Below the pieces are notes generated by a model, which was not told where the DNA came from, did not search any database, and worked only from the letters and a program-made list of their open reading frames with translations. A stretch of DNA of 64,000 nt from an uncultured Candidatus Saccharibacteria bacterium (GTDB taxonomy: Bacteria; Patescibacteriota; Minisyncoccia; Phycocordibacterales; WO2-35-19). This document shows positions 552 to 19,900 of this stretch, piece by piece. The DNA lies in the NCBI GenBank assembly GCA_964589445.1, contig CAZPQX010000003.1, positions 42,133 through 106,132 of the forward strand, read 5' to 3'. The translations under genes were made by a program, and so were the position numbers. Within the stretch, counting starts at the first letter, position 1. Each line of letters starts with the position of its first letter.

Positions 552-627
552 GCGGGCGGGGAGATCGTCTAATGGCCCGCCCGCAACGCCTTGCTTGCAT
601 GGCGGACGGGTAGGACGACGGTTTCTG
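552..627 (+). pseudogene. tRNA-Gln 5'-half pseudo-copy (acceptor 5' arm, D-arm with a 35-nt GC-hairpin insertion, anticodon stem and loop up to CTG), fused directly to the GIY-YIG start
   Basis: gagatcgtctaatgg[35-nt insert]gtaggacgacggtttctg aligns to positions 1-36 of the intact tRNA-Gln at 874. It diverges with 2 indels and 1 substitution and breaks right after the anticodon, 6 nt before the GIY-YIG ATG. Confidence 0.55.
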
Positions 628-632
628 AAAAT

Positions 633-869
633 ATGAATTACACCTATGTATTAAAAAGTTTAAGGGATAATAAACTTTATATTGGGTGGACGAACGATTT
701 GAAAAGAAGGCTGGAAATGCACAATCTGGGTAAGGTTGACGCTACCAAAAATAGAATTCCGTTCGAAATTGTGTATTATGAAGCTTGCCTTGATAAGGAA
801 AAGGCAATTGAGAGGGAAAAGTATTTCAAGACTGGTTTTGGTAGAAAGTTTTTGAAAAGTAGGATTTAA
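633..869 (+). CDS. GIY-YIG nuclease family protein (UPF0213/YhbQ-like), copy 1
   Basis: MNYTYVLKSLRDNKLYIGWTNDLKRRLEMHN... contains the GIY...YIG motif plus downstream R/E/N residues. The ORF track extends the ORF to 591 through the tRNA-like sequence; the ATG at 633 is preferred. Confidence 0.8.
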   Translation: MNYTYVLKSLRDNKLYIGWTNDLKRRLEMHNLGKVDATKNRIPFEIVYYEACLDKEKAIEREKYFKTGFGRKFLKSRI

Positions 870-873
870 ATAT

Positions 874-944
874 TGCGGGATCGTCTAATGGTAGGACAAC
901 GGTTTCTGGAACCGTCTATCTAGGTTCGAGTCCTAGTCCCGCAG
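874..944 (+). tRNA. tRNA-Gln (anticodon CTG)
   Basis: Cloverleaf: acceptor TGCGGGA/TCCCGCA (U1-A72 as in bacterial tRNA-Gln), D-arm GTCT/GGAC, anticodon stem ACGGT/ACCGT with loop TTCTGGA, T-arm CTAGG-TTCGAGT-CCTAG, discriminator G; CCA not encoded. Confidence 0.9.
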
Positions 945-984
945 CCGCGATTTTTTAACGAGCGAAGCGACTGTAAAAAATCAG

Positions 985-1009
985 CGTCCTGAGCGAAGCG
1001 AAGGGCCAG
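985..1009. repeat. Conserved post-tRNA motif GTCCTGAGCGAAGCGAAGGGC (second copy at 55403-55428)
   Basis: A 21-mer repeated with 1 mismatch downstream of tRNA-Gln and downstream of tRNA-Ser; both copies are preceded by an AT-rich inverted-repeat hairpin. Confidence 0.5.
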
Positions 1010-1024
1010 ATTTTTAATGTCTGA

Positions 1025-1104
1025 AAAAATTTTGAGTCGCGGGAGAGATTCCTGAGTCCCGCAGCACTGATCGCAACTTTGATTGAAAAATTTTGAGTCG
1101 GGGT
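1025..1104. repeat. att-like direct repeat of the tRNA-Gln 3' end, copy 1, plus a truncated copy (1086-1104)
   Basis: aaaattttgagtcgcgggagagattcctgagtcccgcagcactgat; the part tcctgagtcccgcagc matches the tRNA-Gln 3' end tcctagtcccgcagcc. Confidence 0.55.
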
Positions 1105-1150
1105 CCCAGGCCTACAATCAAACTAGCTTGCAGCTTGAGACCCAATAAAC

Positions 1151-1909
1151 ATGAAAGAGCCAGAAATAATTCTAGATCCTAAAGAACTCGATATTTTAAA
1201 ATTGGTTCTTGAGGATATTAAAAAATCTTTGACCTGCGAATTTGCTATTGGTGGATCAATGGCACAAAGAGCTTTATTGCCAGAATTTGGGCAATCAAGT
1301 GAAGCAAACAAAAAGAGTGACATTGATATCGTGCTCTTGGCTGGGTCAAGAGAAAGGTGCCCAGTTTTGCATTCCATAAAAAATTATTTTTATGTTTTGA
1401 GCATTACAGAATCTTTTGATAGTTATTATTTCGGACTTGTACATAAAAAGACAAAAAAGTGGGTTGATTTATTTCCAGTCGCATATAGTCGTTCCTACTA
1501 TAATGTACGAGTAGAAGGAAAAGCTTATAAAGCAGAAACTATCTCAAGCCAAGTATTATATCTTGCTCACGATTTGCTGCGGAGAATAAAAGGCCATAAA
1601 GATGTGCGACAAAAATGGTTCAATAAAATAAAATTTCTATTCTCACAGATTAAAGATGTTACTGATTTTGAAAATGAATTTTCTTCTCATAAACAATATT
1701 TACTTGAAGATCTTCCCAGGGGGGTAAAAATACCTGAAAACGCCCATGAATTTATACAAACGGTTATTGAATGTGTCGCTCCTTTCGTTAAACTTTCTAC
1801 AAAGAGAAATTGGTTCCTCCTATTTAAAAATTATTATAAAGATTCTGTTGTTACCTCAAACGGCATCAAGGTAGATTCTAGGTTTGCTCTACTTCGAACC
1901 TTATTTTGA
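1151..1909 (+). CDS. Pol-beta-superfamily nucleotidyltransferase (minimal NTase fold; possibly aminoglycoside/lincosamide nucleotidyltransferase-like)
   Basis: FAIGGSMAQRALL...SDIDIVLL gives the GS...DxD NTase motif; 252 aa is similar in size to KNTase-type ANT enzymes. Resistance function not established. Confidence 0.5.
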   Translation: MKEPEIILDPKELDILKLVLEDIKKSLTCEFAIGGSMAQRALLPEFGQSSEANKKSDIDIVLLAGSRERCPVLHSIKNYFYVLSITESFDSYYFGLVHKKTKKWVDLFPVAYSRSYYNVRVEGKAYKAETISSQVLYLAHDLLRRIKGHKDVRQKWFNKIKFLFSQIKDVTDFENEFSSHKQYLLEDLPRGVKIPENAHEFIQTVIECVAPFVKLSTKRNWFLLFKNYYKDSVVTSNGIKVDSRFALLRTLF

Positions 1910-1940
1910 GGATGTTTGAAACATGTCGGCAGGAGCTCTT

Positions 1941-1998
1941 AAAAAATTTTGAGTCGGGGGAGAGATTCCTGAGTCCCGCAGTACTTGATTTTTTAAGA
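1941..1998. repeat. att-like direct repeat of the tRNA-Gln 3' end, copy 2
   Basis: aaaaaattttgagtcgggggagagattcctgagtcccgcagtacttgattttttaag; a tail-only copy lies at 2446-2466 and a degenerate copy at 5356-5410. Confidence 0.55.
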
Positions 1999-2035
1999 TT
2001 ATGAGAGCATAATTAGTAACAGGAAAGGGGGGTTC

Positions 2036-2302
2036 ATGTCGACTATCATGGGTCGCAAAAAAGAACCACTTAGTATTGAAAATATAAACGAGATTCTCAG
2101 AGGGTCCTATGGAGTCGAGGTTCGAGAGTGCCAAGGTGGCACCGCTCGAGTTTCGCACTTTTTGAATCCTGAAAGACAGTGGTGGGTTGATGTCAGTTCT
2201 CTTTTTAGAGAGGATGAAGTTCCTACCAAACAAGAAGTCTCAAAAAGATTAAACAAGCAGATTCCTGAGCGCAAGGCATATATCGGCGCGCGTTGCATCT
2301 AA
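2036..2302 (+). CDS. Hypothetical protein (88 aa)
   Basis: ORF with a strong SD (aggaaagggggg) upstream; no recognisable motif. Confidence 0.45.
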   Translation: MSTIMGRKKEPLSIENINEILRGSYGVEVRECQGGTARVSHFLNPERQWWVDVSSLFREDEVPTKQEVSKRLNKQIPERKAYIGARCI

Positions 2303-2498
2303 ATTAGTTGCCATGTTCTTCTAAAATAGTTCGTCTGTATTAATGTAGTTAGTAACACACAAGAGGTCAAGCCTCCAGAAGCATCCATCCAGCAGGTTCG
2401 GGTGTTTTTATTTGTCTAAAATAGTTTCAACTTCATACCAGATAGCCAGCACTTGATTTTTTAAATAAATATTATAGATTATTTTGTAGGAGAACAGA

Positions 2499-2696
2499 TT
2501 GGAAAAGCCAAACAAAATGATTCGTGTGACTCTTGACCTCATCCAAGAGGACTACAACCTCTTGGAAGGTTTAGGCGGCATAAAAGCCGTGGCGCTTAGA
2601 AAGGGCATTCGGCTCTTGGACCAACTTCGTCGAGGGGAGGTTTTCCTTCATACACAGAATGGGGACAAGATTCCCACGGAAATTGTCCTCCCTTAA
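2499..2696 (+). CDS. Small hypothetical protein (65 aa; possible DNA-binding)
   Basis: ORF with an SD (gtaggag) upstream; start is TTG at 2499 or ATG at 2517. Confidence 0.35.
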   Translation: MEKPNKMIRVTLDLIQEDYNLLEGLGGIKAVALRKGIRLLDQLRRGEVFLHTQNGDKIPTEIVLP

Positions 2697-2801
2697 TGTA
2701 CTCAACCGCTCACACAAACAGTCTTGCTGACTCGTTTCGGTGGGCTGTTTTTGTTTGTAAAAAATGATTAAAGTTGAATGTCAAAATGATATAATCCAAA
2801 T

Positions 2802-3437
2802 ATGAAAATAAACTTTATTTATAATCAAGACAAAGATATAGACTGTTTACTGAGTAAAGGCCCTGGCTCCACTAATCAACCAGGAAGTATGACAAAGCCT
2901 TACGAATCTCTACTCCTTTTTACTTCAGACATAAATAATAAAGAGAATGTCAGAGAATTTGTAAGAAAATATATTAGAGAAAATAATATAGATATAGAAA
3001 AAAATAAGAATGAAATAGAGAATAATTGGAATCTAATTTCTGGAGAGTTTAATAGAAGAGCTGAAGAAATATTTGGGATAATAATAGAAGATGAGGTAAA
3101 TGCATACCTGACAATTACAGGAAGGCACCCTTATAATGTAGGGAATAAATACTTTTATGTATCAGCCGAAAAGAAAAATGTAAATAAAAATATAATGCAT
3201 GAATTATGGCATTTTTATACTTGGTATAGGTTTGGAGATTTTAATAAAGTTGACCCTGTTAGATATAACGACGCGAAGGAGTCACTGACGGCAATACTAA
3301 ATATAGTATTTCGGGATCTTATGGACGGGGGATATGATAAAGGGTATTCGCAACATCAAAATCTAAGAAATATAGCGATTGATACTTGGGACAAAACCAA
3401 AGATATTGGTGTGGTCTGGAATGAGCTGATCGTATAA
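2802..3437 (+). CDS. HEXXH-motif protein (putative Zn metallopeptidase, ImmA/IrrE-like?) in an AT-rich island
   Basis: NIMHELWHFYTW carries an HExxH motif; the ORF is very AT-rich relative to its flanks. Confidence 0.4.
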   Translation: MKINFIYNQDKDIDCLLSKGPGSTNQPGSMTKPYESLLLFTSDINNKENVREFVRKYIRENNIDIEKNKNEIENNWNLISGEFNRRAEEIFGIIIEDEVNAYLTITGRHPYNVGNKYFYVSAEKKNVNKNIMHELWHFYTWYRFGDFNKVDPVRYNDAKESLTAILNIVFRDLMDGGYDKGYSQHQNLRNIAIDTWDKTKDIGVVWNELIV

Positions 3438-3513
3438 ATTATTAACGTATTTCCCCAGATGGATAATTTGATGCGATATCTTTAATTTTGTGTACTTGCA
3501 TTTAAAACCTAAA

Positions 3514-3549
3514 TATGTTATACTATATAAAGAATCATTCGCCACATTA
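3514..3549 (+). pseudogene. Remnant of a GIY-YIG gene C-terminus (VILYKESFATL)
   Basis: Matches the C-terminal VLKYNESFATL of the downstream GIY-YIG copy at both protein and nucleotide level. Confidence 0.45.
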
Positions 3550-3619
3550 ACTTTTGGGGGTAAGGTGGCCCCAAGAGCTAGGCCCCAAAGGCCAAAGTCC
3601 CGAGTGAATTCTCCACCTG

Positions 3620-3659
3620 ATTGGGCCGCCGGAAATTCCAGCGGCCCAATACTTTTTGG
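3620..3659 (+). terminator. Rho-independent terminator (perfect 10-bp stem attgggccgc/gcggcccaat followed by T-run)
   Basis: attgggccgccggaaattccagcggcccaatactttttgg. Confidence 0.6.
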
Positions 3660-3665
3660 TACAAT
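3660..3665 (+). promoter_or_regulatory. -10 box TACAAT, 7 nt upstream of the GIY-YIG copy 2 ATG (near-leaderless)
   Basis: tacaatagtacacATG. Confidence 0.4.
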
Positions 3666-3672
3666 AGTACAC

Positions 3673-3960
3673 ATGAAGCGGACAAGTGAATCTACGAAAT
3701 ATTTTGTTTACATCCTCGAATGTGCAGACAAGTCTCTCTATGTCGGCTGTACCAATAATCTAGAAAAAAGAGTTCACGAGCACAACAATTTGAAATCGGG
3801 TGCACACTATACAAAAATCCGAAGGCCTGTGGTTTTAAAATATAATGAATCCTTCGCTACCTTGCTTGAGGCGAGAGGTAGGGAGGCCGAAATAAAGGGA
3901 TGGGTAAAAAGTAAAAAAGTAGCACTTATAGAAGGTAAAGAAAATCTCCGTAAATATTGA
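3673..3960 (+). CDS. GIY-YIG nuclease family protein (UPF0213/YhbQ-like), copy 2
   Basis: MKRTSESTKYFVYILECADKSLYVGCTNNLEKRVHEHN...; near-identical paralog of the 8894 copy. Confidence 0.85.
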   Translation: MKRTSESTKYFVYILECADKSLYVGCTNNLEKRVHEHNNLKSGAHYTKIRRPVVLKYNESFATLLEARGREAEIKGWVKSKKVALIEGKENLRKY

Positions 3961-4019
3961 AAAGTTTGATTTTTATTGTGAAATAATGTAAATTCACTAT
4001 GGAAATTGTTAGAGCTTAA

Positions 4020-5225
4020 TTGCTCGTTTTGACAATACCACGACTACAAAGAAAGGTTGAAGCAAAAATGGTTAGCAGTTCTAAGAAGGCGGAGCTAGAC
4101 ATGCGGCGTGAGGCTGTTCATGTCCTAGTGTCCTTGGGGCTGTCGTATCAAGACATTGCCACCGCTATAGCCGTAGATATCGGCTCGGTGGTGAACGATG
4201 TGAAGAAGATCGCTCCCGTTACGATGAGGTTTGAGGTTGAAGGGCTGACCGGCCCACAGCGTCGCGACAAGGCGTTTAATCACTCCTTGCGCGAGTGGCT
4301 TTTGGTTAGGACTGAGAGCTACTCCAAGAGGCTTGGTGTTGATCGGGATGTGATGGACTGTATTGAATCCGCACTCTCAGTTTGCCTCGACATGAGGCGA
4401 CTCAACGGCATCGCCGAAGGTGTCGTCGCATTCGTCAATACATTGCTTTACCCGGTTGATCCGCCAGAGTATCTGCCTTACCGGCATTTACTCAGGGCTA
4501 TCTTTGGAGAACCTACCAAGCTTAAGGAGAAGAAGCCCTATTCGGCTCTGTTGTGTCACTTTGGATATTTCATTCATGGCTCGGGTTTTGAGTTTACCCG
4601 CGATTCCATCGCAGAGCAGCTTGCTACGCTGGCCATGGAAGAGTTCCGGCAAAACTTTCGCGCCCCACTCGGCGAGAGTGTTAAAATCGCTTTTGAGGAA
4701 GCTCTCAAGACAATAGACAAAAGGGAGGCAGAGGTCCTCGATCTCCGCTTTGGTCTTTCGGGGAAGAGACTAACCCCCGGTGAACTTCGTGGTCGTTTCG
4801 CTGTGACTGATGAGAGGATCCGACAAATCGAGGCAAAGGGATTGCGCAAGCTTCGTCACCCCGAGCGTTCTCGTCGTCTCCGTCCTTTTATCGAGTCTCC
4901 CTTCAGTTTTACCCAAAGGACACTCGATGAGATGTTTGTCCGTCCGGCCCCTATTCCTATTGAGGTTTCGGATACGGCCAAGCTTCTTTCTCAGGAAATC
5001 GAGGAGCTTGAGCTATCAACCCGTTCCTACCATAGCCTTAAGGCTATGGGCGTTCATACTGTCGGCGACCTCGTGCAGAAAACGGAGAGAGAAATGTTGT
5101 CCACGGGGATTCGCTTTGGGTTTGGGCGCAAGTCTTTCAATGAAGTAAAGGAGATTTTGCGTTCCATGGGGCTCTCATTTGGCATGAAGCTTGAGGACGG
5201 TGTTTTGAAGCGACCGGCTGACTAA
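4020..5225 (+). CDS. Chimeric transcription-factor-like protein: N-terminal HTH, sigma-70 region 4.2, and an RNA polymerase alpha C-terminal-like domain
   Basis: [56 protein letters not shown] matches sigma-70 region 4.2 almost residue for residue. The following [63 protein letters not shown] matches RpoA alpha-CTD ([27 protein letters not shown]...LASRGLSLGMRLE). No sigma region 2 is recognisable. Start is probably ATG at 4068. Confidence 0.7.
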
Positions 5226-5452
5226 GTCTGATCGTGGTATCAATGCCTGTGCTTGTTCTTTGGAGCAGGCACGGGCTCTCATCAAAGTTTTTTCTAAAAG
5301 AGAAATTTTTGATGAGATTTTTTCTAAAAAAGATTGAAAAAGGAGGGGGCTGCCTGAAAATTTTTGAGTTGAGGAAAGGGGAGGGATTCTTGAGCCCTGC
5401 AGTATTTGACATGCTAGTATATATTATGATATAATATAAGAAGAGGTTAATA

Positions 5453-5737
5453 ATGAAGAAGCTTTTCCTGCTCAAGAATTTGGGTCAGCCTACTCATGGC
5501 GAGACCCGTGCCATGCTCGTTTCCGCAGTCGACGAACTTGATGCACGAAACTGGGCCGGGTCGACGCCGCATGTCCCCAGCCACAACACGGGGGATCCCG
5601 AAGGGATCAATGGGTATGGGGACGAGGGTGCAAATGTGTGGAGAGATTCCACAAAATCATCTTGCACTGAAATCGCGATCTCATTCTCCACCAATTTGGG
5701 GTTCGGTGTAGTCCTAACGGACTACATCTACGCTTAA
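5453..5737 (+). CDS. GC-rich small hypothetical protein (94 aa)
   Basis: -10 TATAAT at 5432-5437 and SD aagagg upstream; GC-rich body; no recognisable motif. Confidence 0.35.
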   Translation: MKKLFLLKNLGQPTHGETRAMLVSAVDELDARNWAGSTPHVPSHNTGDPEGINGYGDEGANVWRDSTKSSCTEIAISFSTNLGFGVVLTDYIYA

Positions 5738-5914
5738 CTTGCCGCAGTACGAATTTAAAGGCACGACGTAACCAACCGTCGGCCTTTTCTGTTTGTAAAA
5801 ACAAAAGAGGATATATTCAAAATTCGGTAGGATAGAAAACTACTTATTGATAAGTTAGGATTACTAAAATCAGTAAGGGTTGAATATTGAGTAATAAAGT
5901 TATATTTTGTCTGT

Positions 5915-7009
5915 ATGAACAAGTTGTTCCAATCAGAAAAATATTTAAACTATCTAAAAAGAAGGGCTAGAAAAGAGAGAAAAGCAAAGCTAAGATATGA
6001 GTTATATATAAAAGCTAAGAACATACTTAAGTATAAAAAGACTATACCAACGTTCAGGCATCTGCGGGATTGGCCAGTTAATATAGAGGCTCCTGAAATT
6101 TTTTCACTCATTAAAAATAGTGAGGAGACAATATCTTTTATAAATAAAATAGGAGAAAATTTTAGAAAAAGAAATAAGGTTTTTATTCTTCTAAATAAGG
6201 TTGAAGAAATAGATTATGATGCAATTGCTGTATTGCTTTCCGTCATGATTCTATTTAGGACGAGTCATATACCTTTTAATGGAGATAGGCCAGTTGCGGA
6301 GTTGGCAAAAAATAAACTTGATGATTCTGGTTTTTTTGATGAATTATACAAGAAAGACAGAAGAGGGATGTCTTATGTTATAGGAAAAGACAAACAAATA
6401 TTTTCAAGTTCTGAGAAAAAGGTTGAACCATCTTTGGGTTTACCTGTTATGAAATATGCTTCCGAATTTATATGGGAAGAAAAAAGGATTTGTAAGGGTT
6501 TGCAAAGAGTATTGCTTGAGTTGATGCATAATACTCATAATCATGCCGGAGGTTATTTGAGTAGGGGTATGGAAAGGTGGTGTTTTTTTATAAATCACAA
6601 CAAAGATAAAAAAGTTGTTGAATTTGTTTTTGTTGACTATGGAGTGGGAATATTCAATAGTTTGAATAAAAAAGAAAAAGGAAATAAATGGTATGATTGG
6701 CAAAATAAACTAAAGAGTGTTTCTGGGTTACCTATAAAAATGACAAATGAAGAAATTTTAAAAAAACTATTAAATGGAGAAATGCATGTGACTGTTACGG
6801 GAGAAGATTTTAGAGGGAAGGGTTTGCCAGGAATTAAGCAAGTTTTAGATAGAAATCAAATAAGTAACCTCTGTATTATAAGCAATAACACCTATGCAGA
6901 AGTGTCAAACAATAAGTACAAATTATTAAGACAAGATTTTAGTGGAACTTTTATTTATTGGGAACTGTGCTATTCTAATAAAAATCATCCGTGGACAATA
7001 AAATTATAA
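5915..7009 (+). CDS. GHKL/HATPase_c-type ATPase (histidine-kinase-like ATP-binding fold)
   Basis: N-box LLELMHNTHNHAGG, G1 VDYGVGI (DxGxG), G2 GEDFRGKGLPGI; AT-rich. Confidence 0.5.
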   Translation: MNKLFQSEKYLNYLKRRARKERKAKLRYELYIKAKNILKYKKTIPTFRHLRDWPVNIEAPEIFSLIKNSEETISFINKIGENFRKRNKVFILLNKVEEIDYDAIAVLLSVMILFRTSHIPFNGDRPVAELAKNKLDDSGFFDELYKKDRRGMSYVIGKDKQIFSSSEKKVEPSLGLPVMKYASEFIWEEKRICKGLQRVLLELMHNTHNHAGGYLSRGMERWCFFINHNKDKKVVEFVFVDYGVGIFNSLNKKEKGNKWYDWQNKLKSVSGLPIKMTNEEILKKLLNGEMHVTVTGEDFRGKGLPGIKQVLDRNQISNLCIISNNTYAEVSNNKYKLLRQDFSGTFIYWELCYSNKNHPWTIKL

Positions 7010-7332
7010 AAATATCAATAGCTAAAGATTTTTCGGTGACACCAGGAGCTCGCTACAAGAAAGAGGGTGATTTTTCAGGTGAAGAATTTAGGGATAAAAT
7101 CCTAGAACCTGCTTTTTTGAGGGCAAAAAAAGAAGGTTGTAAGTTGGTTGTAGATTTAGATGGAACAATTGGGTACGGGACAAGCTTCTTAGAGGAAGTT
7201 TTTGGTGGTCTCGCAAGAACGCAGGGCCCAAATGAAGTCTTTTCCGTATTAGAAGTTTTATCTACAGAAGAAGAATATTTAAAAGAGGACGTTCTTGGGT
7301 ATATAAAAGATGTTAAAGTGGACAAATCTTAA
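6991..7332 (+). CDS. STAS-like (DUF4325-type) small protein, partner of the GHKL ATPase
   Basis: GEEFRDKILEPAFLRAKKEGCKLVVDLDGTIGYGTSFLEEVFGGL fits the G..FR..I.....V.LDF.GV....SF.DE..G.L pattern; overlaps upstream gene by 19 nt; start uncertain. Confidence 0.45.
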   Translation: MDNKIIKISIAKDFSVTPGARYKKEGDFSGEEFRDKILEPAFLRAKKEGCKLVVDLDGTIGYGTSFLEEVFGGLARTQGPNEVFSVLEVLSTEEEYLKEDVLGYIKDVKVDKS

Positions 7333-7915
7333 TATTTTATTATTCATAATAGTTTTCTTACTAGGTAGTTTACTAGGCTTTTCTTTATATGGATATTTAA
7401 GTAGTTATGGATTCCAGATAAATAAAGAGATAGATTTAATGAATTTATTGTCTTTGTCTGTTAATAGTATAATTGCTATTTTTGTTGTTAGGGCAATTAG
7501 AAAAAAGGATGATGGTGATCGTAGAAAAAAAGAGATTATAATAAAATATTTTGAAAATTTTGACTCAGAATTTTTTAACATCTCTAGGGAGATGGCAAAA
7601 AATGGAGTAGAACTTAAGTGGGTTACTGGTGTTTTAAAAAGATACAGAAATAGAGCATATAAGTTAATAAAACTTGCAGATAAACATCATTTTATAACTG
7701 AAAATTGTATTGAAGCTAGTGTATTATTAGAAAATATAAAAAAGATTCAAGATTTACTAACCGACACTCCGCGAGAAGGAGAAATAGAAAATGGAGTAAG
7801 GGCTACAAACGGCAAACTTAGTTTTTCAGCAAAACAGATAGACGATATATCATCCACAACCTTCGATGTAACATCTAATGTATTCGAAATTATAGTGATA
7901 ATAAATAATCGCTAG
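7310..7915 (+). CDS. Membrane protein (2 N-terminal TM helices plus cytoplasmic domain), third gene of the AT-rich operon
   Basis: Hydrophobic N-terminus LNILLFIIVFLLGSLLGFSLYGYL...IIAIFVV; overlaps upstream gene by 23 nt. Confidence 0.5.
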   Translation: MLKWTNLNILLFIIVFLLGSLLGFSLYGYLSSYGFQINKEIDLMNLLSLSVNSIIAIFVVRAIRKKDDGDRRKKEIIIKYFENFDSEFFNISREMAKNGVELKWVTGVLKRYRNRAYKLIKLADKHHFITENCIEASVLLENIKKIQDLLTDTPREGEIENGVRATNGKLSFSAKQIDDISSTTFDVTSNVFEIIVIINNR

Positions 7916-7993
7916 AGAGTTAAGATTTTAGTTACGGCATTTTTATAACTTTAACCAAAGAACCCAGCACATTTTCAATGCTATAATTACCCT

Positions 7994-8884
7994 ATGAAAA
8001 AGGAACTTAAAAACATAGCAGTGCTCGGGGTTTTTGCTTTGCTGGTATTGATTGGAGTGGGGGAGAAAGCACTCGCTACTATAGGTGGCCCGACCTACAT
8101 ATATGATTTCAAATACAACCCGAAAGATGAGTCGGTGTACTACACTGAAAGCGACTACGGAGGCAGAGGCTGCCCACCCATGCTCTCCAAAACATCACTC
8201 GCCACAGGCGTGAGTCAAAAGGTGTACTCATGTGACCAGGGGGAAAAATTATACGACGGAAAAGATTATGAGGTTGCTATTGCTGAGGTGAGGGCTCAGA
8301 TAAACGCCATCACTCAAAATTTCAAAAACCTGGTACCTATCAGTCTAAAGAAAAATAATATTGCTATTGATTTAAAGTTTGTGAGAACTGAAAATTTGAA
8401 CCCCGAGATAGATGAGATCAAAAACAGTGTGTTTAGTGCAACTGTATATCAAGGTGACAAAAAACTGACAGAAATGGAGATATCGGGCTGCAACACTGAG
8501 CAGCCTTTCACTTTTGCCGGCTATGCTGTGCCTGGGTTTGATAAAAAGATAGTGCTCCTCCTTTCTACAAAGGGTGATTGTTTTGAAGGTGGCTATATAG
8601 ACGAGTCGCTCCTCGTGGTGGGCGGCCTAAATTCTATAAACAGAGAATCTTTAAATTTTTATAAGAGCGACGAAGCTCTAGTACCCAACGAAGGCACACT
8701 CACTGTATATGAAAATGAAAGTGTGGAGGTGGTAAATAATGGCGAAGTAGAAACACCTACAGAAACGGAAACAGAAGCAGAGGGAGAGGCAAATATGAAT
8801 TTATATATAATATTTGGGGTAGCCGCTCTGGTGCTTGTGGTACTCGGGTTTGTTGTAGGTAGGATGAGTAAAAAACAAGTTTAG
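7994..8884 (+). CDS. Secreted/membrane-anchored hypothetical protein (signal peptide plus C-terminal TM anchor, acidic TETE linker)
   Basis: N-terminal signal-like MKKELKNIAVLGVFALLVLIG and C-terminal LYIIFGVAALVLVVLGFVVGR. Confidence 0.5.
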   Translation: MKKELKNIAVLGVFALLVLIGVGEKALATIGGPTYIYDFKYNPKDESVYYTESDYGGRGCPPMLSKTSLATGVSQKVYSCDQGEKLYDGKDYEVAIAEVRAQINAITQNFKNLVPISLKKNNIAIDLKFVRTENLNPEIDEIKNSVFSATVYQGDKKLTEMEISGCNTEQPFTFAGYAVPGFDKKIVLLLSTKGDCFEGGYIDESLLVVGGLNSINRESLNFYKSDEALVPNEGTLTVYENESVEVVNNGEVETPTETETEAEGEANMNLYIIFGVAALVLVVLGFVVGRMSKKQV

Positions 8885-8893
8885 GAAGCCCTC

Positions 8894-9142
8894 ATGTATA
8901 AAGTTTATATCCTCGAATGTGCTGACCAAACTTTGTATGTCGGCTCGACCAACAATTTGGAGAAGCGGCTCGTAGAGCACAATACTTCTAAGAAAGGTGC
9001 TCACTATACGAAAATAAGAAGGCCAGTGGTTTTGAGGTATTCTGAAGACATGCCCAACCTCTCCGCCGCCCTAAAAAGGGAACTTGAGATAAAAAGATTA
9101 AAAAGACAGGAGAAGCTAGCTTTGATTGAAAAAACTGGGTAA
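8894..9142 (+). CDS. GIY-YIG nuclease family protein, copy 3
   Basis: MYKVYILECADQTLYVGSTNNLEKRLVEHNTSKKGAHYTKIRRPVVL is near-identical to copy 2. Confidence 0.85.
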   Translation: MYKVYILECADQTLYVGSTNNLEKRLVEHNTSKKGAHYTKIRRPVVLRYSEDMPNLSAALKRELEIKRLKRQEKLALIEKTG

Positions 9143-9227
9143 ATTGACTTTTTCAAAAAAAATAGTAGTGTGAATGTGGAAAAAAAGAACGCCTTTGCGG
9201 CGTTTGTAGCTGGAAGGAAAGGAAAGC

Positions 9228-9830
9228 ATGTCTTCTCTCAAAACTGTTGGGGTTTGTATCCAGGATACCATCTATGCAAGAGGTCTTACCTCAGTGCTGG
9301 AGGGTGCTGGCTACGAGGTGTCTTGTTTAGATGTGTGCACTTTGTGCGCCGACGACATTCCCGATTGTGTTATTGTGGGTCTGAGGAAGGGTGTTCAGAT
9401 TGTGGATTTTCTGATTTCTCAAATCGGAGCATTCAAAGAGTCACCTAAAGCTCTCGTTGTCATCACGAGCGGCGTTACTTCGACCCAGGTGGACAAGCTG
9501 AAGTCGCTCGGGGTGAATGCGATACTGAGCTTCGAGATGGAGCCGGAGGAACTCGTTAACTCGATGGTTCTCTTGCCACAACATTCAATTGTTAACCTGG
9601 AAATAATCACTCCAGGGGCAAATCCGAAACTCCTGACCATCAGGGAATGGCAGGTGTTATCTTTGCTAGCGGAAGGTTTATCGGTCAAGGAGATTGCCGT
9701 ATATCTCAACCTGAATGTGAAGACTGTGGAGGCCCATAAGCTCAATCTCATGAGGAAGCTCGACCTCCACAATAAGGTTGAGGTGGTGAAGTGGTGGTTG
9801 GACAACAAGCAACACAAACCGGCAGCCTAA
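9228..9830 (+). CDS. LuxR/NarL-family transcriptional regulator with an atypical (likely non-phosphorylatable) receiver domain
   Basis: C-terminal LuxR HTH: LTIREWQVLSLLAEGLSVKEIAVYLNLNVKTVEAHKLNLMRKL. The receiver lacks the canonical DD pair, and the phospho-Asp position reads VIVGL. Confidence 0.6.
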   Translation: MSSLKTVGVCIQDTIYARGLTSVLEGAGYEVSCLDVCTLCADDIPDCVIVGLRKGVQIVDFLISQIGAFKESPKALVVITSGVTSTQVDKLKSLGVNAILSFEMEPEELVNSMVLLPQHSIVNLEIITPGANPKLLTIREWQVLSLLAEGLSVKEIAVYLNLNVKTVEAHKLNLMRKLDLHNKVEVVKWWLDNKQHKPAA

Positions 9831-9855
9831 TGTTTGGCCGCGCTCTCTTGATAGA

Positions 9856-9885
9856 ATCCCGCAGGATATCGCGGGGTTCTTTTTG
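9856..9885 (+). terminator. Rho-independent terminator
   Basis: aatcccgcaggatatcgcggggttctttttg. Confidence 0.55.
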
Positions 9886-9973
9886 TAAATGTTCATGATG
9901 GGGTGTTGAGATGCATAGGCATCAGAAACTCGCATTCATTGAAAAAACAGGATTAAGGGGGTAGAATTTTGTA

Positions 9974-10432
9974 ATGCAAAAAATAACACCCAATCTTTGG
10001 TTTAAGGGCAACGCCGTTGAGGCAGTCAACTTTTATTTATCGGTTTTCCCTGACTCCAAAATTATCACTACTTCGTATTATCCGACAGAAGGACTACTCG
10101 ATTTCCAAAAAGATTTTGCTGGGAAGCCTCTCGCTATTTACTTTTCGCTTATGGGAATGGAGTTTGTGGCGATAAACGCAGGCAACGAATTTACTTTCAA
10201 TGAAGCAGTTTCATTCAATATTTCTTGTAAGGATCAAGAAGAGATTGACTATTATTGGCAAAAGCTTGCACTAGAAGGAGGAGAAGAAAGTGTTTGCGGA
10301 TGGTGCAAAGACAAGTATGGCCTCTCGTGGCAGATCAACCCAGAAAATATAGAAGACTTGATGCTCAAACCTGGTGCCTGGTCAAAACTTTTGGAGATGA
10401 AAAAGATTGATATAAAGGCACTCGAAGAATAG
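9974..10432 (+). CDS. VOC-family / PhnB-like protein (3-demethylubiquinone-9 3-methyltransferase-like fold)
   Basis: MQKITPNLWFKGNAVEAVNFYLSVFPDS... matches the typical PhnB/VOC N-terminus. Confidence 0.55.
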   Translation: MQKITPNLWFKGNAVEAVNFYLSVFPDSKIITTSYYPTEGLLDFQKDFAGKPLAIYFSLMGMEFVAINAGNEFTFNEAVSFNISCKDQEEIDYYWQKLALEGGEESVCGWCKDKYGLSWQINPENIEDLMLKPGAWSKLLEMKKIDIKALEE

Positions 10433-11460: not shown

Positions 11461-11988
11461 ATGGCAGCAAATACTAAGGGACTCGACCTCTTCGCGGCGA
11501 TGGCCGCGGTGGATTTGACGGCGATGTCGATGTCCATGGATGATGGGGTGTGGGGCCCGGTTGAGGAGGGAGACACCGTTTTGGGTGTCATGAGTGAGAA
11601 CCTTCAGCGGATCTTCTGCGTTCGGGCCAATGTCTTTTTCGAGCTCCGGTCGTTTGCCGGGGCGGCTCGTGAAAAGGGCATTCAACTCATCGCTCGTCAT
11701 TTGGAGGAGGTCACATCTCGTGTGGAGGGCGAAGAATTAGGCTGCACCGCGTTCCAAAAGGAGATCGAGGATACCTTTGAAGAAACCTATGGTCTCCAGA
11801 TGGTGTGCGATCGCGTGAGTGAAATTTTGTCAGATTTGATTGCTCTCGAGCTGGGGCTCGAGAGCACTCAGGGACTCATCGTCCGCGAGGGTTTCCAGGT
11901 CGTCAAGCCCAAGGGCCACGAAGAGGAGATCCCACTCCATTTCAAAATCTTGGTGTCCAGGGGTGGGGGGCGCGGTAAACCTGCGTAG
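11461..11988 (+). CDS. GC-rich hypothetical protein (likely acquired)
   Basis: ORF with SD ggggag, its own promoter and a terminator (12017-12050); GC is well above flanks; no recognisable motif. Confidence 0.4.
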   Translation: MAANTKGLDLFAAMAAVDLTAMSMSMDDGVWGPVEEGDTVLGVMSENLQRIFCVRANVFFELRSFAGAAREKGIQLIARHLEEVTSRVEGEELGCTAFQKEIEDTFEETYGLQMVCDRVSEILSDLIALELGLESTQGLIVREGFQVVKPKGHEEEIPLHFKILVSRGGGRGKPA

Positions 11989-12095
11989 GATATCGGCGCA
12001 AAAAATCAGCGATGGCTGGGGCCGGGTGGAGACACCTGGCCTTTTTCTTTTTAAAATTTTATACAAAACCAATATCGATTTGTTATAATATTGGT

Positions 12096-12395
12096 ATGAA
12101 AAAGATATTTATTTTGATTGTGATATTAGTAGTTGGTGTTTTGGGTTATTTATTCTTTAGAAAGTCTCCCGAGGAGGCTATGCCAAATAATACAAACACT
12201 CCAAATACTGAGCAGGGAGCAGTTTCTGGAAAAATTAATATAAACGTAGTTTGCGAAGGAGCTCTTTCATACATGACCTTCCCAGACGCTGTGGCGGCTG
12301 ACGCATTTGTCGCTGAATGTAAAGAAGGAAAGCACCCTGAAGTGATAGAAAAATACAAAGCCGATATGAATTTGGGAGATGGCGCCGCGATATAA
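12096..12395 (+). CDS. Small secreted/membrane-anchored protein
   Basis: MKKIFILIVILVVGVLGYLFF N-terminal TM/signal. Confidence 0.4.
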   Translation: MKKIFILIVILVVGVLGYLFFRKSPEEAMPNNTNTPNTEQGAVSGKININVVCEGALSYMTFPDAVAADAFVAECKEGKHPEVIEKYKADMNLGDGAAI

Positions 12396-12407
12396 AAATT
12401 CAAAATA

Positions 12408-12442
12408 AAACAGCCAGCCCCCGTAAGGGGGCCGGCTGTTTT
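12408..12442. terminator. Bidirectional terminator
   Basis: cagccagcccccgtaagggggccggctgtttttgg. Confidence 0.6.
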
Positions 12443-12479
12443 TGGCTATTAATTTTTCGATACTAGGGGACTAGCTAAC

Positions 12480-14507
12480 TTAAGGGAATGATACGTCGCT
12501 TGTCCTCCACTCAACTAGGCCTGACATGAAGTTTGTCGTGTTTATCGTACCCCCTCCTTGCCACCTAAATCCTTCAAAACCTATTGAGTAGATGCCTGTA
12601 GGTAGAGGAGAGCCGTCTGGTCTTCTACCTAGGATTTGGAAGGTTACAGGTATTGATACTTCTGTACCTTCTGGGATCCTAAAGCTGTTTGTAAGTCCCG
12701 AAGTGTTGCTTCCGCTAGGGATGCTAAATGAGGTTGATGTAGCGGCACTCCCTATACTATTGTCGGATGCACCATTCCTATAAACTTGGAATGACCCGCT
12801 TGTAGATCCGAAAGCAGGGGATGTAGAAGCTGCTGTACCAAGTATCAGATCTTCTCCTACCGCTCTAATCCTCAAGTTGAATGTGGCGGTGAGAGTAGAT
12901 GTGCTCATATTGCTTGTACCACCAAACTGGGGTGCACCATTTGTGGTGATGCTTGCGGATGAAAGTGAAATCTCTGGACCAACATTTCTCACTGTCACAG
13001 GGTAGCCGATGGCGCTGCCCGTGATGTCGCTCGTGTCTATACTGTCACCAAGATTGTTTTCTGCTGTGATGCCTGAAGAGGAGGCACTAGCAGAAAATGT
13101 AACAGGATTGATGTCACTATTCCTTATGTCAGCTCTTACACTGAGTGTGCGAGTAGTGTTTATTGGTATGTTGTAATCGATATTACTAAACACTGCTGTG
13201 TCGCCATTTACTGATGTATTGTCTATCTCTCTAGAGCCGTCATACAAGTAAAGTGTGCTTGAAGCGTTTGCACTTCCGCTACCACTTTTACTTATATTTA
13301 CTCTGAGGTCTCTCATCACGATATCAGCTCTCTCTGCTCTGAGGTCAAAGGTGAGTAGAGTGAGCCTGTCTATCTCGTTGTTGTTTACACCGGAAGAAGA
13401 GACTACATTTTGAGCTCTCGGAGTAGAGTTGTTTAGAGAAAGTCTAAGTGTCGCTGTCTCTGAAAGACTTTCCTGTACGCTAAAGCTTCTTGATACGCTT
13501 GAGCCAAAAGAAGGACCGTAGTGGTCTATACCTGCTCCGTCTGTACCTCTCACACCGTTGTTTGCAAGTGATATAGAGCGAGAGCCTCTGTCATTCTGGT
13601 CTATACTAGTCCGCACATCTGCTCTGATCACCAAGTCTCTAGATGTTTCCTTCGGTACAATGTAGCTAAAACCCGTGAGGTCTATAAAGTAGTTGTCACC
13701 TTCTCTGATCACATTTGATGAATTCAGGTCTCTAGATGCTATGCTTGTGTTTGAGTTGCCCTCGCTCAAATATATTCGAGAGAGTACTCTATTGTACAAG
13801 GTTGAGTTTGTGCCTAAGTTTACACGGACTCTTTGTACCGCTATGTCGGAAGTCCTAGCTTCTACTCTCATACCAAGCACTGCTACACCAGTCTGACCTT
13901 CGTAGATAGTAGAGCTTATGCCGGCGTTGGTCTGGCTAACTGTCATGATGCCCTCTACTCCTGGAGTGGTGATGCCGCCAGTTGTAGGAGTGGTGGTGCC
14001 TGTAGTTGGTGGTGTGGTAGGTGTTTGGGCTGCAAGGATCGCGTTTATCCTAGCTCTTGTTATCGGACCGAAATATCCGGCTGTCGGGCTGATGCTTTGT
14101 GCAGCTTGGAAACGAGAGAGAGCCGCTTGTGTGAGTGTGCCGAAGTATCCATAAGCTACACCTGTAGGCATAACCAAATACCCATTTGTAACTAGGAACT
14201 GCTGAAGTCTAGTCACTTGTGCACCCGTGCTTCCTAGAGTCAGGTCGCTAGTGAAGACGAAGCTCGGAGTAGTCGGAGTACCTCCGGTTTGCTGTCCAGC
14301 TATTATTGCTTGTAGTTGGCTCACGAGTGCTAGCAATGTGTTTATCTGTGCCCTGAGGTGAGCGTCGGTGCTTGTAGTGGTAGTCGCCTGCGCGTTTGCT
14401 CTTTGGGGATTAATTCCAAAGCTTGGGATTAAGAGACCCAGGATGAGTGCTCCGCCCAAAAGCCACTTAAGCACCTTTTCCTTTTTTGTGCTTTCTTTGT
14501 TGTTCAT
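12480..14507 (-). CDS. Large Thr/Ser-rich cell-surface protein with an N-proximal peptidoglycan-binding domain
   Basis: Signal/TM N-terminus; PG_binding_1-like region LGSTGAQVTRLQQFLVTNGYL...GYFGTLTQAALSRFQ...GYFGPITRARI; T/S-rich repeats. Confidence 0.6.
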   Translation of the reverse strand: MNNKESTKKEKVLKWLLGGALILGLLIPSFGINPQRANAQATTTTSTDAHLRAQINTLLALVSQLQAIIAGQQTGGTPTTPSFVFTSDLTLGSTGAQVTRLQQFLVTNGYLVMPTGVAYGYFGTLTQAALSRFQAAQSISPTAGYFGPITRARINAILAAQTPTTPPTTGTTTPTTGGITTPGVEGIMTVSQTNAGISSTIYEGQTGVAVLGMRVEARTSDIAVQRVRVNLGTNSTLYNRVLSRIYLSEGNSNTSIASRDLNSSNVIREGDNYFIDLTGFSYIVPKETSRDLVIRADVRTSIDQNDRGSRSISLANNGVRGTDGAGIDHYGPSFGSSVSRSFSVQESLSETATLRLSLNNSTPRAQNVVSSSGVNNNEIDRLTLLTFDLRAERADIVMRDLRVNISKSGSGSANASSTLYLYDGSREIDNTSVNGDTAVFSNIDYNIPINTTRTLSVRADIRNSDINPVTFSASASSSGITAENNLGDSIDTSDITGSAIGYPVTVRNVGPEISLSSASITTNGAPQFGGTSNMSTSTLTATFNLRIRAVGEDLILGTAASTSPAFGSTSGSFQVYRNGASDNSIGSAATSTSFSIPSGSNTSGLTNSFRIPEGTEVSIPVTFQILGRRPDGSPLPTGIYSIGFEGFRWQGGGTINTTNFMSGLVEWRTSDVSFP

Positions 14508-19889: not shown

Positions 19890-19900
19890 CCAAAAATATT

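Follow-up and report, generated by a model that had tools for sequence, protein, structure and literature searches.

Analysis of a 64,000-nucleotide stretch of DNA (the window) showed that three overlapping genes, which we call A, B and C, form a cassette that looks like an undescribed membrane-effector version of VapKSC, a tripartite toxin-antitoxin and anti-phage system (Chambers et al., EMBO J 2026; PMC13373217). In VapKSC, the STAS-GHKL kinase VapK phosphorylates the DUF4325 antitoxin VapS, and the VapC toxin is thereby freed; the S48E mutant of VapS has lost toxin neutralisation, and the system gives about 2 logs of protection against phage Bas42 (PMC13373217). A transmembrane variant of VapKSC is not mentioned in that report. 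In the cassette described here, the membrane protein C stands in the place of the PIN toxin, and the three genes constitute a strictly co-inherited mobile unit. We propose, with a probability of about one half, that the cassette is a mobile toxin-antitoxin-like or abortive-infection module in which a one-way phospho-switch would control a membrane effector, a reading drawn by analogy with VapKSC.

An ORF check placed A, B and C on the forward strand at 5915-7915, with overlaps of 19 nt between A and B and 23 nt between B and C, exactly as a first-pass annotation of this DNA had described them (Table 1). The low GC content that it had reported relative to the flanks was also evident. The cassette has a GC of 0.307 (A 0.303, B 0.363, C 0.277) compared to 0.469 upstream, 0.438 downstream and 0.408 for the whole window; among all 2001-nt windows it ranks in the bottom 0.5%, and the minimum of the entire stretch falls on it, which is consistent with horizontal acquisition. 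The sole plausible -35/-10 candidate for the cassette (TTGAAT at 5880-5885 and TATATT at 5901-5906, with a 15-nt spacer) is absent from the promoter scan output. The duplicated GIY-YIG genes noted earlier were recovered as three paralogues in the window, at 591-869, about 3700-3960 and 8894-9142. The proposed upstream 'mobile-element-rich island' was not upheld, since the scanned ORFs upstream of the cassette included no integrase or transposase. A protein with a sigma-70 region 4 is encoded just upstream of the cassette, at 4020-5225.

Table 1. Features of the cassette, in window coordinates.
Feature	Position	Strand	Description
Terminator-like hairpin and T-run	5764..5790	+	Sets the cassette apart from the upstream 94-aa ORF
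Gene A	5915..7009	+	364-aa STAS-GHKL protein kinase, VapK/CapK-like architecture
A residues 1-52, very basic N-terminal helix	5915..6070	+	Candidate nucleic-acid or membrane contact
A residues ~55-150, STAS domain	6077..6364	+	Without conserved phospho-acceptor
A residues ~170-364, GHKL (Bergerat-fold) kinase domain, SpoIIAB/RsbW type	6422..7006	+	
Gene B	6991..7332	+	113-aa DUF4325 (STAS-like); predicted phospho-acceptor, antitoxin-like (VapS-like) partner
B Thr64-Ser65 codons	7180..7185	+	Predicted phosphorylation site; 87/87 invariant, aligned to VapS Ser48
Gene C	7310..7915	+	201-aa two-TM membrane protein; predicted effector; fast-evolving orphan family

Searches with A as a single sequence against Pfam, NCBIfam, PADLOC and the PDB returned nothing useful, and a profile of A gave just low-complexity matches on the basic N-terminus when compared with PDB sequences. 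The domains of A were assigned by family-level scanning and structure. Presence of a GHKL fold in the first protein had been set beforehand as the test on which the earlier proposal could fail; the fold is present and is of the anti-sigma serine-kinase type, with SpoIIAB and RsbW as the nearest structures. Its active site is conserved, and the motifs of this domain are an N-box (E202/N206), a G1 box (D241xGxG245) and a G2 box (R300-G-K-G303). The STAS domain matches MlaB and SLC26 STAS structures, and the position equivalent to Ser58 of SpoIIAA is occupied by Y, H, N, S or G. The N-terminus forms one long basic helix (residues 8-40 in the structure model) that matches no HTH family, and the first 50 residues across the A family hold a mean of 18 K+R versus 3.6 D+E. 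Comparison of the A family with VapK/CapK using hhalign gave E-values of 0.04, 0.004 and 0.002, with low probabilities and with the motifs in register; the best match was CapK, where N-box, G1 and G2 all align. By sequence, A is thus only marginally similar to VapK and CapK, and homology at the level of the kinase rests on fold and architecture.

The DUF4325/STAS-like signature that had been recognised in B was confirmed by a match to Pfam DUF4325 (PF14213; E = 1.9e-12), the same family that VapS matches (E 2.7e-17). DUF4325 is the only domain of this 113-aa protein, which has no DNA-binding domain. Thr64 and Ser65 are invariant in 87/87 sequences, and together they align with the GSSF motif of STAS 3t6o. 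Alignments of the B family with VapS and CapS by hhalign were in register and statistically weak, and it is in such an alignment that Thr64 lies opposite phospho-Ser48 of VapS.

Hydropathy analysis of C identified the two hydrophobic N-terminal helices expected from its description as a 201-aa two-TM membrane protein (residues ~9-27 and ~41-59), and two such helices near the N-terminus were seen in 71/88 relatives. Hydropathy and the distribution of K/R residues predict an N-in/C-in topology, and a cytoplasmic helical domain of ~135 aa is predicted beyond the TM helices. C is the most divergent of the three proteins, with a median identity among relatives of 20% compared to 41% for A and 50% for B. 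It showed no PIN or other Pfam match and no similarity to PDB or PADLOC entries, matches to the PDB and Pfam being non-significant coiled-coil/TM noise such as t-SNARE (E 0.008) and ClyA (E 0.12), and it showed no similarity to known toxins or pore-formers. When an index of 5.8 billion proteins was searched, C alone retrieved only itself and a 44-sequence profile retrieved 7 proteins; a structure model built from a 7-sequence alignment was poor (pLDDT 57). None of the three proteins matched PADLOC-DB 2.0.0 (2023) at E<=1.

Co-conservation of the genes, a check suggested by the first-pass annotation, was found in all 86 related loci (80 unique), where A, B and C were adjacent with order and strand kept, and extended to phages and plasmids. 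The genes overlap in all database gene calls inspected, and the identities of A, B and C co-vary among relatives (r 0.53-0.65). The trio is centred on Bacteroidota and CPR, and occurs in at least nine phyla, including Bacteroidota, six CPR lineages, Proteobacteria, Verrucomicrobiota, Fibrobacterota, Nitrospirota, Cloacimonadota, Omnitrophota and Firmicutes. The majority of copies lie on chromosomes, amid restriction-modification or defence genes. Complete trios were present on four IMG/VR phage contigs, one between the portal and major head genes and another adjoining an integrase. In Marinobacter phage AS1, genes resembling A and B are accompanied by one for a single-pass membrane protein; they lie next to Cro/CI and not adjacent to the endolysin. 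Plasmid-borne trios adjoin MNT/HepT in Leptospira and RelE/ParE in Acinetobacter. The third gene of the Leptospira plasmid is homologous to C (hhalign probability 82%), while those of phage AS1 and the Acinetobacter plasmid have no detectable similarity to it and share its architecture alone. A fold search of a viral library returned one phage protein at E 6.8e-05 and little else.

At all 86 loci the gene after B was C, and the genes beyond C differed in identity and strand. There was no fourth conserved gene beside the trio and no neighbour family at more than 8/80 unique loci; HsdM (8/80) and HsdR (7) were the commonest, followed by RhuM, recombinases/integrases, AbiEii, HsdS and ArdC. PADLOC matches among 140 immediate neighbours, scanned by a pseudo-alignment that lists the best 25 families and to be read as examples and lower bounds with no per-locus rate, included SduA, AbiEi, Type I R-M, DrmMI and mad2/mad8 among those listed. 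Single loci adjoin Shedu, Mrr, MazG with an SLFN helicase, or WYL with a helicase, and toxin-antitoxin genes were also among the neighbours. The proximity to defence genes that had been put forward for checking is seen in R-M, Shedu, AbiE and toxin-antitoxin neighbours, as examples and raw counts uncorrected for genomic background. No sigma factor or PP2C phosphatase was conserved next to the trio at the 80 unique loci, and no ABC (MlaFE) or SLC26 transporter was found among its conserved or recurrent neighbours.

The cassette shares with VapKSC a three-gene operon in the same order, a STAS-GHKL kinase as first gene, a DUF4325 STAS-like protein as second gene (~115 aa in VapKSC) in which an absolutely conserved Ser/Thr occupies one aligned position (S48 in VapS, T64 in B), frequent proximity to defence genes, and the lack of a phosphatase. 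It differs in its third gene, which in the window and in 86/86 relatives encodes a two-TM membrane protein and not a PIN (VapC) nuclease, in the extra basic N-terminal helix of ~50 residues that A has relative to VapK, and in being centred on Bacteroidota and CPR and not on Enterobacteria. A further relative is CapK-CapS, an ssDNA-activated kinase/repressor pair that controls immune operons and is often next to restriction-modification systems; CapK, the partner activated by ssDNA, has an N-terminal HTH, and CapS is a DNA-binding repressor with a C-terminal wHTH (PMC13373217). Like this pair, the cassette has a STAS-GHKL kinase core with a STAS phospho-acceptor gene immediately downstream, and often lies next to restriction-modification systems. 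However, A lacks the N-terminal HTH, B lacks a wHTH or any other DNA-binding domain, and the gene downstream of the pair is a constant C and not a variable immune operon.

We infer a mechanism that would comprise phosphorylation of B by A, binding of B to C, toxicity of C, a trigger of a particular nature and anti-phage activity. A would act as a cytoplasmic sensor kinase, made up of the basic helix, the STAS domain and the SpoIIAB-type GHKL domain, and unphosphorylated B would keep C inactive. On a trigger tied to infection or DNA damage, which, if A behaves like CapK and VapK, may be ssDNA bound between its STAS and GHKL domains, A would phosphorylate B at Thr64 (or Ser65). Phospho-B would then release C, the membrane would be compromised, and growth of the infected cell would stop. 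Small TM proteins are common as abortive-infection effectors, for example the 2TM effectors of CBASS/Pycsar, and RexB. C resembles these in being short, in its N-terminal TM helices and in its place as the last gene of a defence-type operon, and they too are released or activated by a cytoplasmic sensor, as proposed for C. It has no sequence or structural similarity to them, however, and would be activated by release from a phospho-STAS protein and not by a nucleotide signal. Of the options raised in the first-pass annotation, the abortive-infection one ('ATP-dependent sensing gates a membrane effector') is favoured because of the variable, defence-rich neighbourhoods, the carriage by phages and plasmids, and the experimental precedent of VapKSC. 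The other, classical anti-sigma signalling, is unsupported, with neither a sigma factor nor a PP2C phosphatase conserved in the neighbourhood of the trio.

The effector role predicted for C is the weakest link of the defence interpretation. The switch could be kept while C serves as a membrane anchor, or as a sensor of what happens at the envelope, for instance the entry of phage DNA or the action of a holin, and does not kill; the output would then lie elsewhere, either in host or phage proteins phosphorylated by A or in a host target of phospho-B. We consider this unlikely. C diverges far faster than A and B, as expected of an arms-race component, and such divergence would be no less expected of a sensor or anchor in contact with phage than of a toxin. 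C also bears no resemblance to known toxins, and distant trios carry unrelated single-pass membrane proteins as their third gene, so that membrane localisation may matter and not a specific lethal fold. Against this, nothing else that is conserved with the cassette is a candidate effector, the only characterised relative, VapKSC, has its toxin third and its STAS antitoxin second, and abortive-infection effectors are commonly small TM proteins. A somewhat less probable role would be addiction (toxin-antitoxin) or a part in phage lifestyle with no dedicated anti-phage function, whether stabilisation of a plasmid or prophage, superinfection exclusion by the carrier phage, or lysis timing. The plasmid copies beside other TA pairs would suit such a role, as would the phage copies between portal and head genes, beside an integrase and beside Cro/CI; yet copies are mostly chromosomal in restriction-modification and defence neighbourhoods, the AS1 copy is not adjacent to the endolysin, and prophage morons at such positions are usually defence genes. 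These roles and an anti-phage role are not mutually exclusive.

Classical reversible partner switching as in RsbW/RsbV or SpoIIAB/SpoIIAA, with a sigma factor or another housekeeping stress response under its control, appears very improbable. The cassette does pair a GHKL serine kinase of the SpoIIAB/RsbW type, structurally closest to those two proteins, with a STAS-like protein, and the sigma-70 region 4 protein lies just upstream in the window. Unlike in those systems, though, the kinase carries a STAS domain of its own in the same polypeptide, and the cassette is mobile and patchy, with no linked sigma factor or PP2C phosphatase; neither was conserved across the 80 unique loci, all neighbour families were at <=10% of loci, and the upstream sigma-like gene was not conserved at other loci. 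The patchy spread over phyla and the carriage on phages and plasmids also speak against a housekeeping regulator. One relative bears the JGI name 'ABC-type transporter Mla MlaB component', which, with the matches of the STAS domain to MlaB and SLC26 structures, would suggest a STAS accessory of a membrane transporter. This is effectively ruled out by gene content: the cassette has no associated ABC transporter or SLC26 gene, C has just two TM helices and no transporter family match, and the STAS domain belongs to a fusion with an intact kinase.

If the proposed one-way switch with a membrane effector is correct, kinase-gated STAS antitoxins (VapKSC, CapKS) would no longer be confined to a single PIN system of Enterobacteria and would take in a much larger family, spread more widely over taxa and killing by a different module. 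Both the STAS-GHKL proteins of type A and the membrane proteins of type C, each a widespread 'hypothetical' family, would gain a function, as would many DUF4325 genes. Bacteroidota, gut Bacteroidales included, would gain a candidate anti-phage system, and so would CPR bacteria, a group with few characterised defence mechanisms. It would also be further evidence that immune sensor and effector modules recombine freely. More tentatively, and at somewhat less than even odds, the kinase and DUF4325 'K-S' pair may be a general, portable phospho-switch to which bacteria and phages attach interchangeable outputs (a wHTH repressor, a PIN nuclease, membrane proteins), of which the membrane-effector branch would be a large uncharacterised anti-phage family. 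At 50% identity this branch amounts to about 870 to 3000 clusters of sequences; its centre is in Bacteroidota, and CPR/Patescibacteria also carry it. Were this so, a kinase that senses nucleic acid would set free a membrane-disrupting protein of a new type, CPR bacteria would receive one of their first assigned defence mechanisms, and temperate phages would use it against competitors. In addition to the cassette, the window holds a Type I R-M system and a PDC-S06/LmuB-like ATPase, about 9.5 kb away.

The cassette of three overlapping + strand genes encodes a STAS-GHKL kinase-like protein (A), a small DUF4325 protein (B) and a membrane protein (C). The three open reading frames (ORFs) lie in the window exactly where the first-pass annotation had placed them, with overlaps of 19 nt between A and B and 23 nt between B and C. 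The low GC content reported earlier was also reproduced, with a value of 0.307 for the cassette; the 2-kb flanks have 0.469 and 0.438, and the whole window has 0.408. The minimum among all 2001-nt windows falls on the cassette, which belongs to the lowest 0.5%. A terminator-like hairpin lies between the cassette and an upstream 94-aa orphan ORF, which is served by its own predicted promoter, a perfect sigma-70 consensus (TTGACA-18-TATAAT). An intergenic repeat of ~49 nt (TCTGAAAAAATTTTGAGTCGCGGGAGAGATTCCTGAGTCCCGCAGCACT) is present in two copies that are 94% identical, and a partial third copy is found directly 5' of this promoter. A T-rich motif (GTGGGCTGTTTTTGTTTGTAAAAA and variants) occurs at three intergenic sites, one of them the terminator-like site before the cassette, and may be a common terminator element.

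Coordinates of the cassette and of surrounding features in the window
Feature	Position	Strand	Remark
GIY-YIG gene, first copy	591-869	+	URI-type
tRNA-Gln	874-946
~49-nt repeat, first copy	1020-1068
~49-nt repeat, second copy	1937-1985
T-rich motif	2397-2420
T-rich motif	2740-2763
GIY-YIG gene, second copy	~3700-3960	+	URI-type
Sigma-like gene	4020-5225	+	401 aa
~49-nt repeat, partial third copy	5354-5374
Predicted sigma-70 promoter	5406-5435
Orphan ORF	5453-5737		94 aa
Terminator-like hairpin	5764-5781
T-rich motif	5778-5801
A	5915-7009	+	364 aa
B	6991-7332	+	113 aa
C	7310-7915	+	201 aa
GIY-YIG gene, third copy	8894-9142	+	URI-type
Type I R-M system	17376-21769	+
HsdR	17376-19889	+	Type I R-M
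HsdM fused to specificity domain	19901-21769	+	Type I R-M
ATPase	21757-24120	+	787 aa; matches PADLOC PDC-S06, LmuB and mad3 models

We assembled 79 loci containing relatives of A (one genome per GTDB species), supplemented them with loci retrieved through exact protein look-up, and compared every ORF of each locus with iteratively built profiles. The trio was complete in other genomes: in 86/86 loci (80 unique), A was directly followed by B, and B by C, with all three on the same strand. The genes overlapped in all five independent loci for which database gene calls were used. The hosts comprised ~55 Bacteroidota, six CPR lineages (Saccharibacteria, Moranbacteria, Kaiserbacteria, Adlerbacteria, Staskawiczbacteria and an unclassified Patescibacteria bin) and, for the remainder, Gamma- and Betaproteobacteria, Verrucomicrobiota, Fibrobacterota, Nitrospirota, Cloacimonadota, Omnitrophota and one Firmicute. 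The window's own host appears to be a CPR (Parcubacteria-like) bacterium, to go by the source names found in the cluster of its HsdR protein. Relative to the window proteins, median identity was 41% (A), 50% (B) and 20% (C). These identities co-varied (r 0.53-0.65), and the trio is therefore inherited as a unit, though C diverges much faster.

Searched alone, A had no direct match in Pfam, NCBIfam, the defence-system models of PADLOC or PDB sequences. Its relatives numbered 328 in the 90% cluster index, and an exhaustive profile search recovered 2973 clusters (50% identity) at E<=1e-3, and 868 of these reached E<=1e-30. When 44 relatives were scanned singly, 29 matched Pfam STAS weakly and 21 matched HATPase_c. 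The AlphaFold model of A, built on the 44-sequence alignment, was confident (pLDDT 85, pTM 0.79). In it, a long helix at the N-terminus is followed by an alpha/beta domain (residues ~55-150), and an alpha/beta sandwich forms the C-terminal part. The ATP-binding residues E202, N206, D241, G243, G245 and R300-G-K-G303 were invariant (87/87 sequences). The GHKL part of A had been rightly called in the first-pass annotation, but the STAS domain fused to it had been overlooked. In this domain, the position equivalent to SpoIIAA Ser58 is not conserved as Ser/Thr and is occupied by Y, H, N, S or G. The first 50 residues of A are strongly basic; across the family they contain 18 K+R on average.

B was confirmed as a member of the Pfam family DUF4325 ('STAS-like'; E 1.9e-12). 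Nearly all positions of its motif D57-G-x-x-G61-x-G63-T64-S65-F/W-L-E68-E-x-F71-G-G-L74 were invariant, including T64 and S65 (87/87 each), and the motif aligned with GSSF in a STAS antagonist of solved structure. C carries two hydrophobic helices (~residues 9-27 and 41-59), as expected for the two-TM protein described earlier, and two TM helices were detected by the same crude hydropathy measure in 71/88 relatives. The distribution of K/R residues predicts an N-in/C-in topology with a cytoplasmic helical domain of ~135 residues. C did not match any entry in Pfam, NCBIfam, PADLOC or PDB, and its structure model was unreliable (pLDDT 57); its sole invariant residue is T151, within an 'LLTxTP' motif.

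Complete trios were found on four IMG/VR viral contigs. On UViG_2884948029_000003, the trio (7989-10007) lies within the phage structural module, following the terminase large subunit (3227-4732) and portal (4759-6249) and preceding the major head protein (11544-12632), and is a moron-like insertion. On a second contig, the neighbours of the trio are a serine integrase and a tail gene, and on a third it comes after a large tail protein. Distant trios were present in the temperate Marinobacter phage AS1 (AS1_41/40/39, L092 2895-4821, next to Cro/CI and all annotated as hypothetical), on a Leptospira plasmid adjoining an MNT/HepT pair, and on the Acinetobacter wuhouensis plasmid p2_010060 (L093 3517-4800) near a RelE/ParE toxin. 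The Acinetobacter trio is flanked by two ISAba14 copies and its kinase gene is truncated by an IS element to 163 aa, and it looks like a decaying or IS-captured copy. In AS1, the A-like protein is divergent (E 5e-18 to the A profile) and the B-like protein is 48% identical. The third gene of these distant trios encodes a protein of 155-166 aa that has a single TM helix in its N-terminal part. Homology to C is seen for the Leptospira protein (hhalign probability 82%), while the AS1 (159 aa, unrelated to C) and Acinetobacter proteins have only architecture in common with it. In a published annotation of the Francisella prophage KIRK, genes for a hypothetical protein (293 aa), a DUF4325 protein (112 aa) and a TM protein (125 aa) lie between the CI repressor and the integrase (PMC7924643).

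No fourth gene was conserved, the commonest neighbour family being present in just 8/80 loci. Recurrent families were HsdM, HsdR, HsdS, RhuM, serine recombinase, tyrosine integrase, AbiEii (with AbiEi) and ArdC, and PADLOC models matched among the 140 immediate neighbours included, among the matches listed, SduA (Shedu), AbiEi, Type I REase and MTase, DrmMI, mad2/mad8 and PbeA. The Marivirga trio adjoins Shedu, and individual loci adjoin Fic/RhuM and DMP19, an Mrr-type endonuclease with MazG and an SLFN-like helicase, or WYL with a DUF4011 helicase and RtcB. In the window, the Type I R-M system and the 787-aa ATPase form a defence cluster ~9.5 kb downstream of the cassette. This comparative evidence supports the defence-type interpretation offered earlier.

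Published kinase-STAS systems provide a comparison. CapK (HTH-STAS-GHKL) is activated by ssDNA and phosphorylates CapS (STAS-wHTH) on a conserved serine, resulting in de-repression of adjacent immune operons (Chambers et al., EMBO J 2026, PMC13373217). [quoted passage not shown] An earlier PIN classification had merely noted a VapC group as 'transcriptionally coupled to DUF4325' (PMC5499597). Using sequences from the appendix of Chambers et al. (PMC13373217), we found that VapS belongs to DUF4325 (E 2.7e-17), the same Pfam family as B, and that B T64 lies opposite VapS S48 in hhalign. CapK and VapK matched A only weakly (hhalign E 0.002-0.04), but the 'GFF' motif at the C-terminal end of STAS, the N-box, G1 and G2 all lay in register; the K237/K239 region of CapK aligned with the basic hairpin K230-D-K-K233 of A, which has an extra basic helix besides. 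Strict membership in VapKSC was rejected, as the cassette lacks a PIN toxin, as was membership in CapKS (no HTH or wHTH) and the classical partner-switching module of the first-pass annotation (no sigma factor or PP2C). A transmembrane third gene is not mentioned in Chambers et al. (PMC13373217), the only directly relevant paper in a full-text search, which found no other link of DUF4325, STAS and GHKL to phage defence.

The best-supported reading of the cassette is a one-way phospho-switch. A would be the sensor kinase and B the STAS-like acceptor, which would hold C in check until phosphorylated on T64 or S65; C, as a membrane effector, would arrest or kill the cell. The trigger may be ssDNA, by analogy with CapK and VapK only. 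The role of C is the least certain part of the model: the rapid divergence of C, and the unrelated single-pass membrane proteins that take its place in distant trios, would fit a membrane anchor or sensor just as well. With regard to the switch itself, the lack of a linked phosphatase or sigma factor, the strict three-gene unit, its low GC and patchy cross-phylum distribution, and its location in defence islands, plasmids and prophage moron sites argue against reversible signalling and in favour of an irreversible device for toxin release or abortive infection. The most fitting description of the cassette is a new and widespread variant of the kinase-STAS-toxin design, with a predicted membrane effector. 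The design itself is already published (2026); the membrane-effector branch, its size and its occurrence in Bacteroidota, CPR and phages appear undescribed.

Just upstream of the cassette, the sigma-like gene, which is not conserved beside the trio in other loci, encodes sigma-70 region 4 (residues 228-280) and an RNA polymerase alpha-subunit C-terminal domain (317-381), an unusual fusion that also matches the C-terminus of the PADLOC MzaA model (E 1.6e-11). Three small GIY-YIG paralogues are present in this region. The second and third copies, with 73% nucleotide identity over 144 nt, flank a ~5-kb segment in which the cassette lies together with the sigma-like gene and a gene for a membrane or secreted protein of 296 aa, and the first copy abuts tRNA-Gln.
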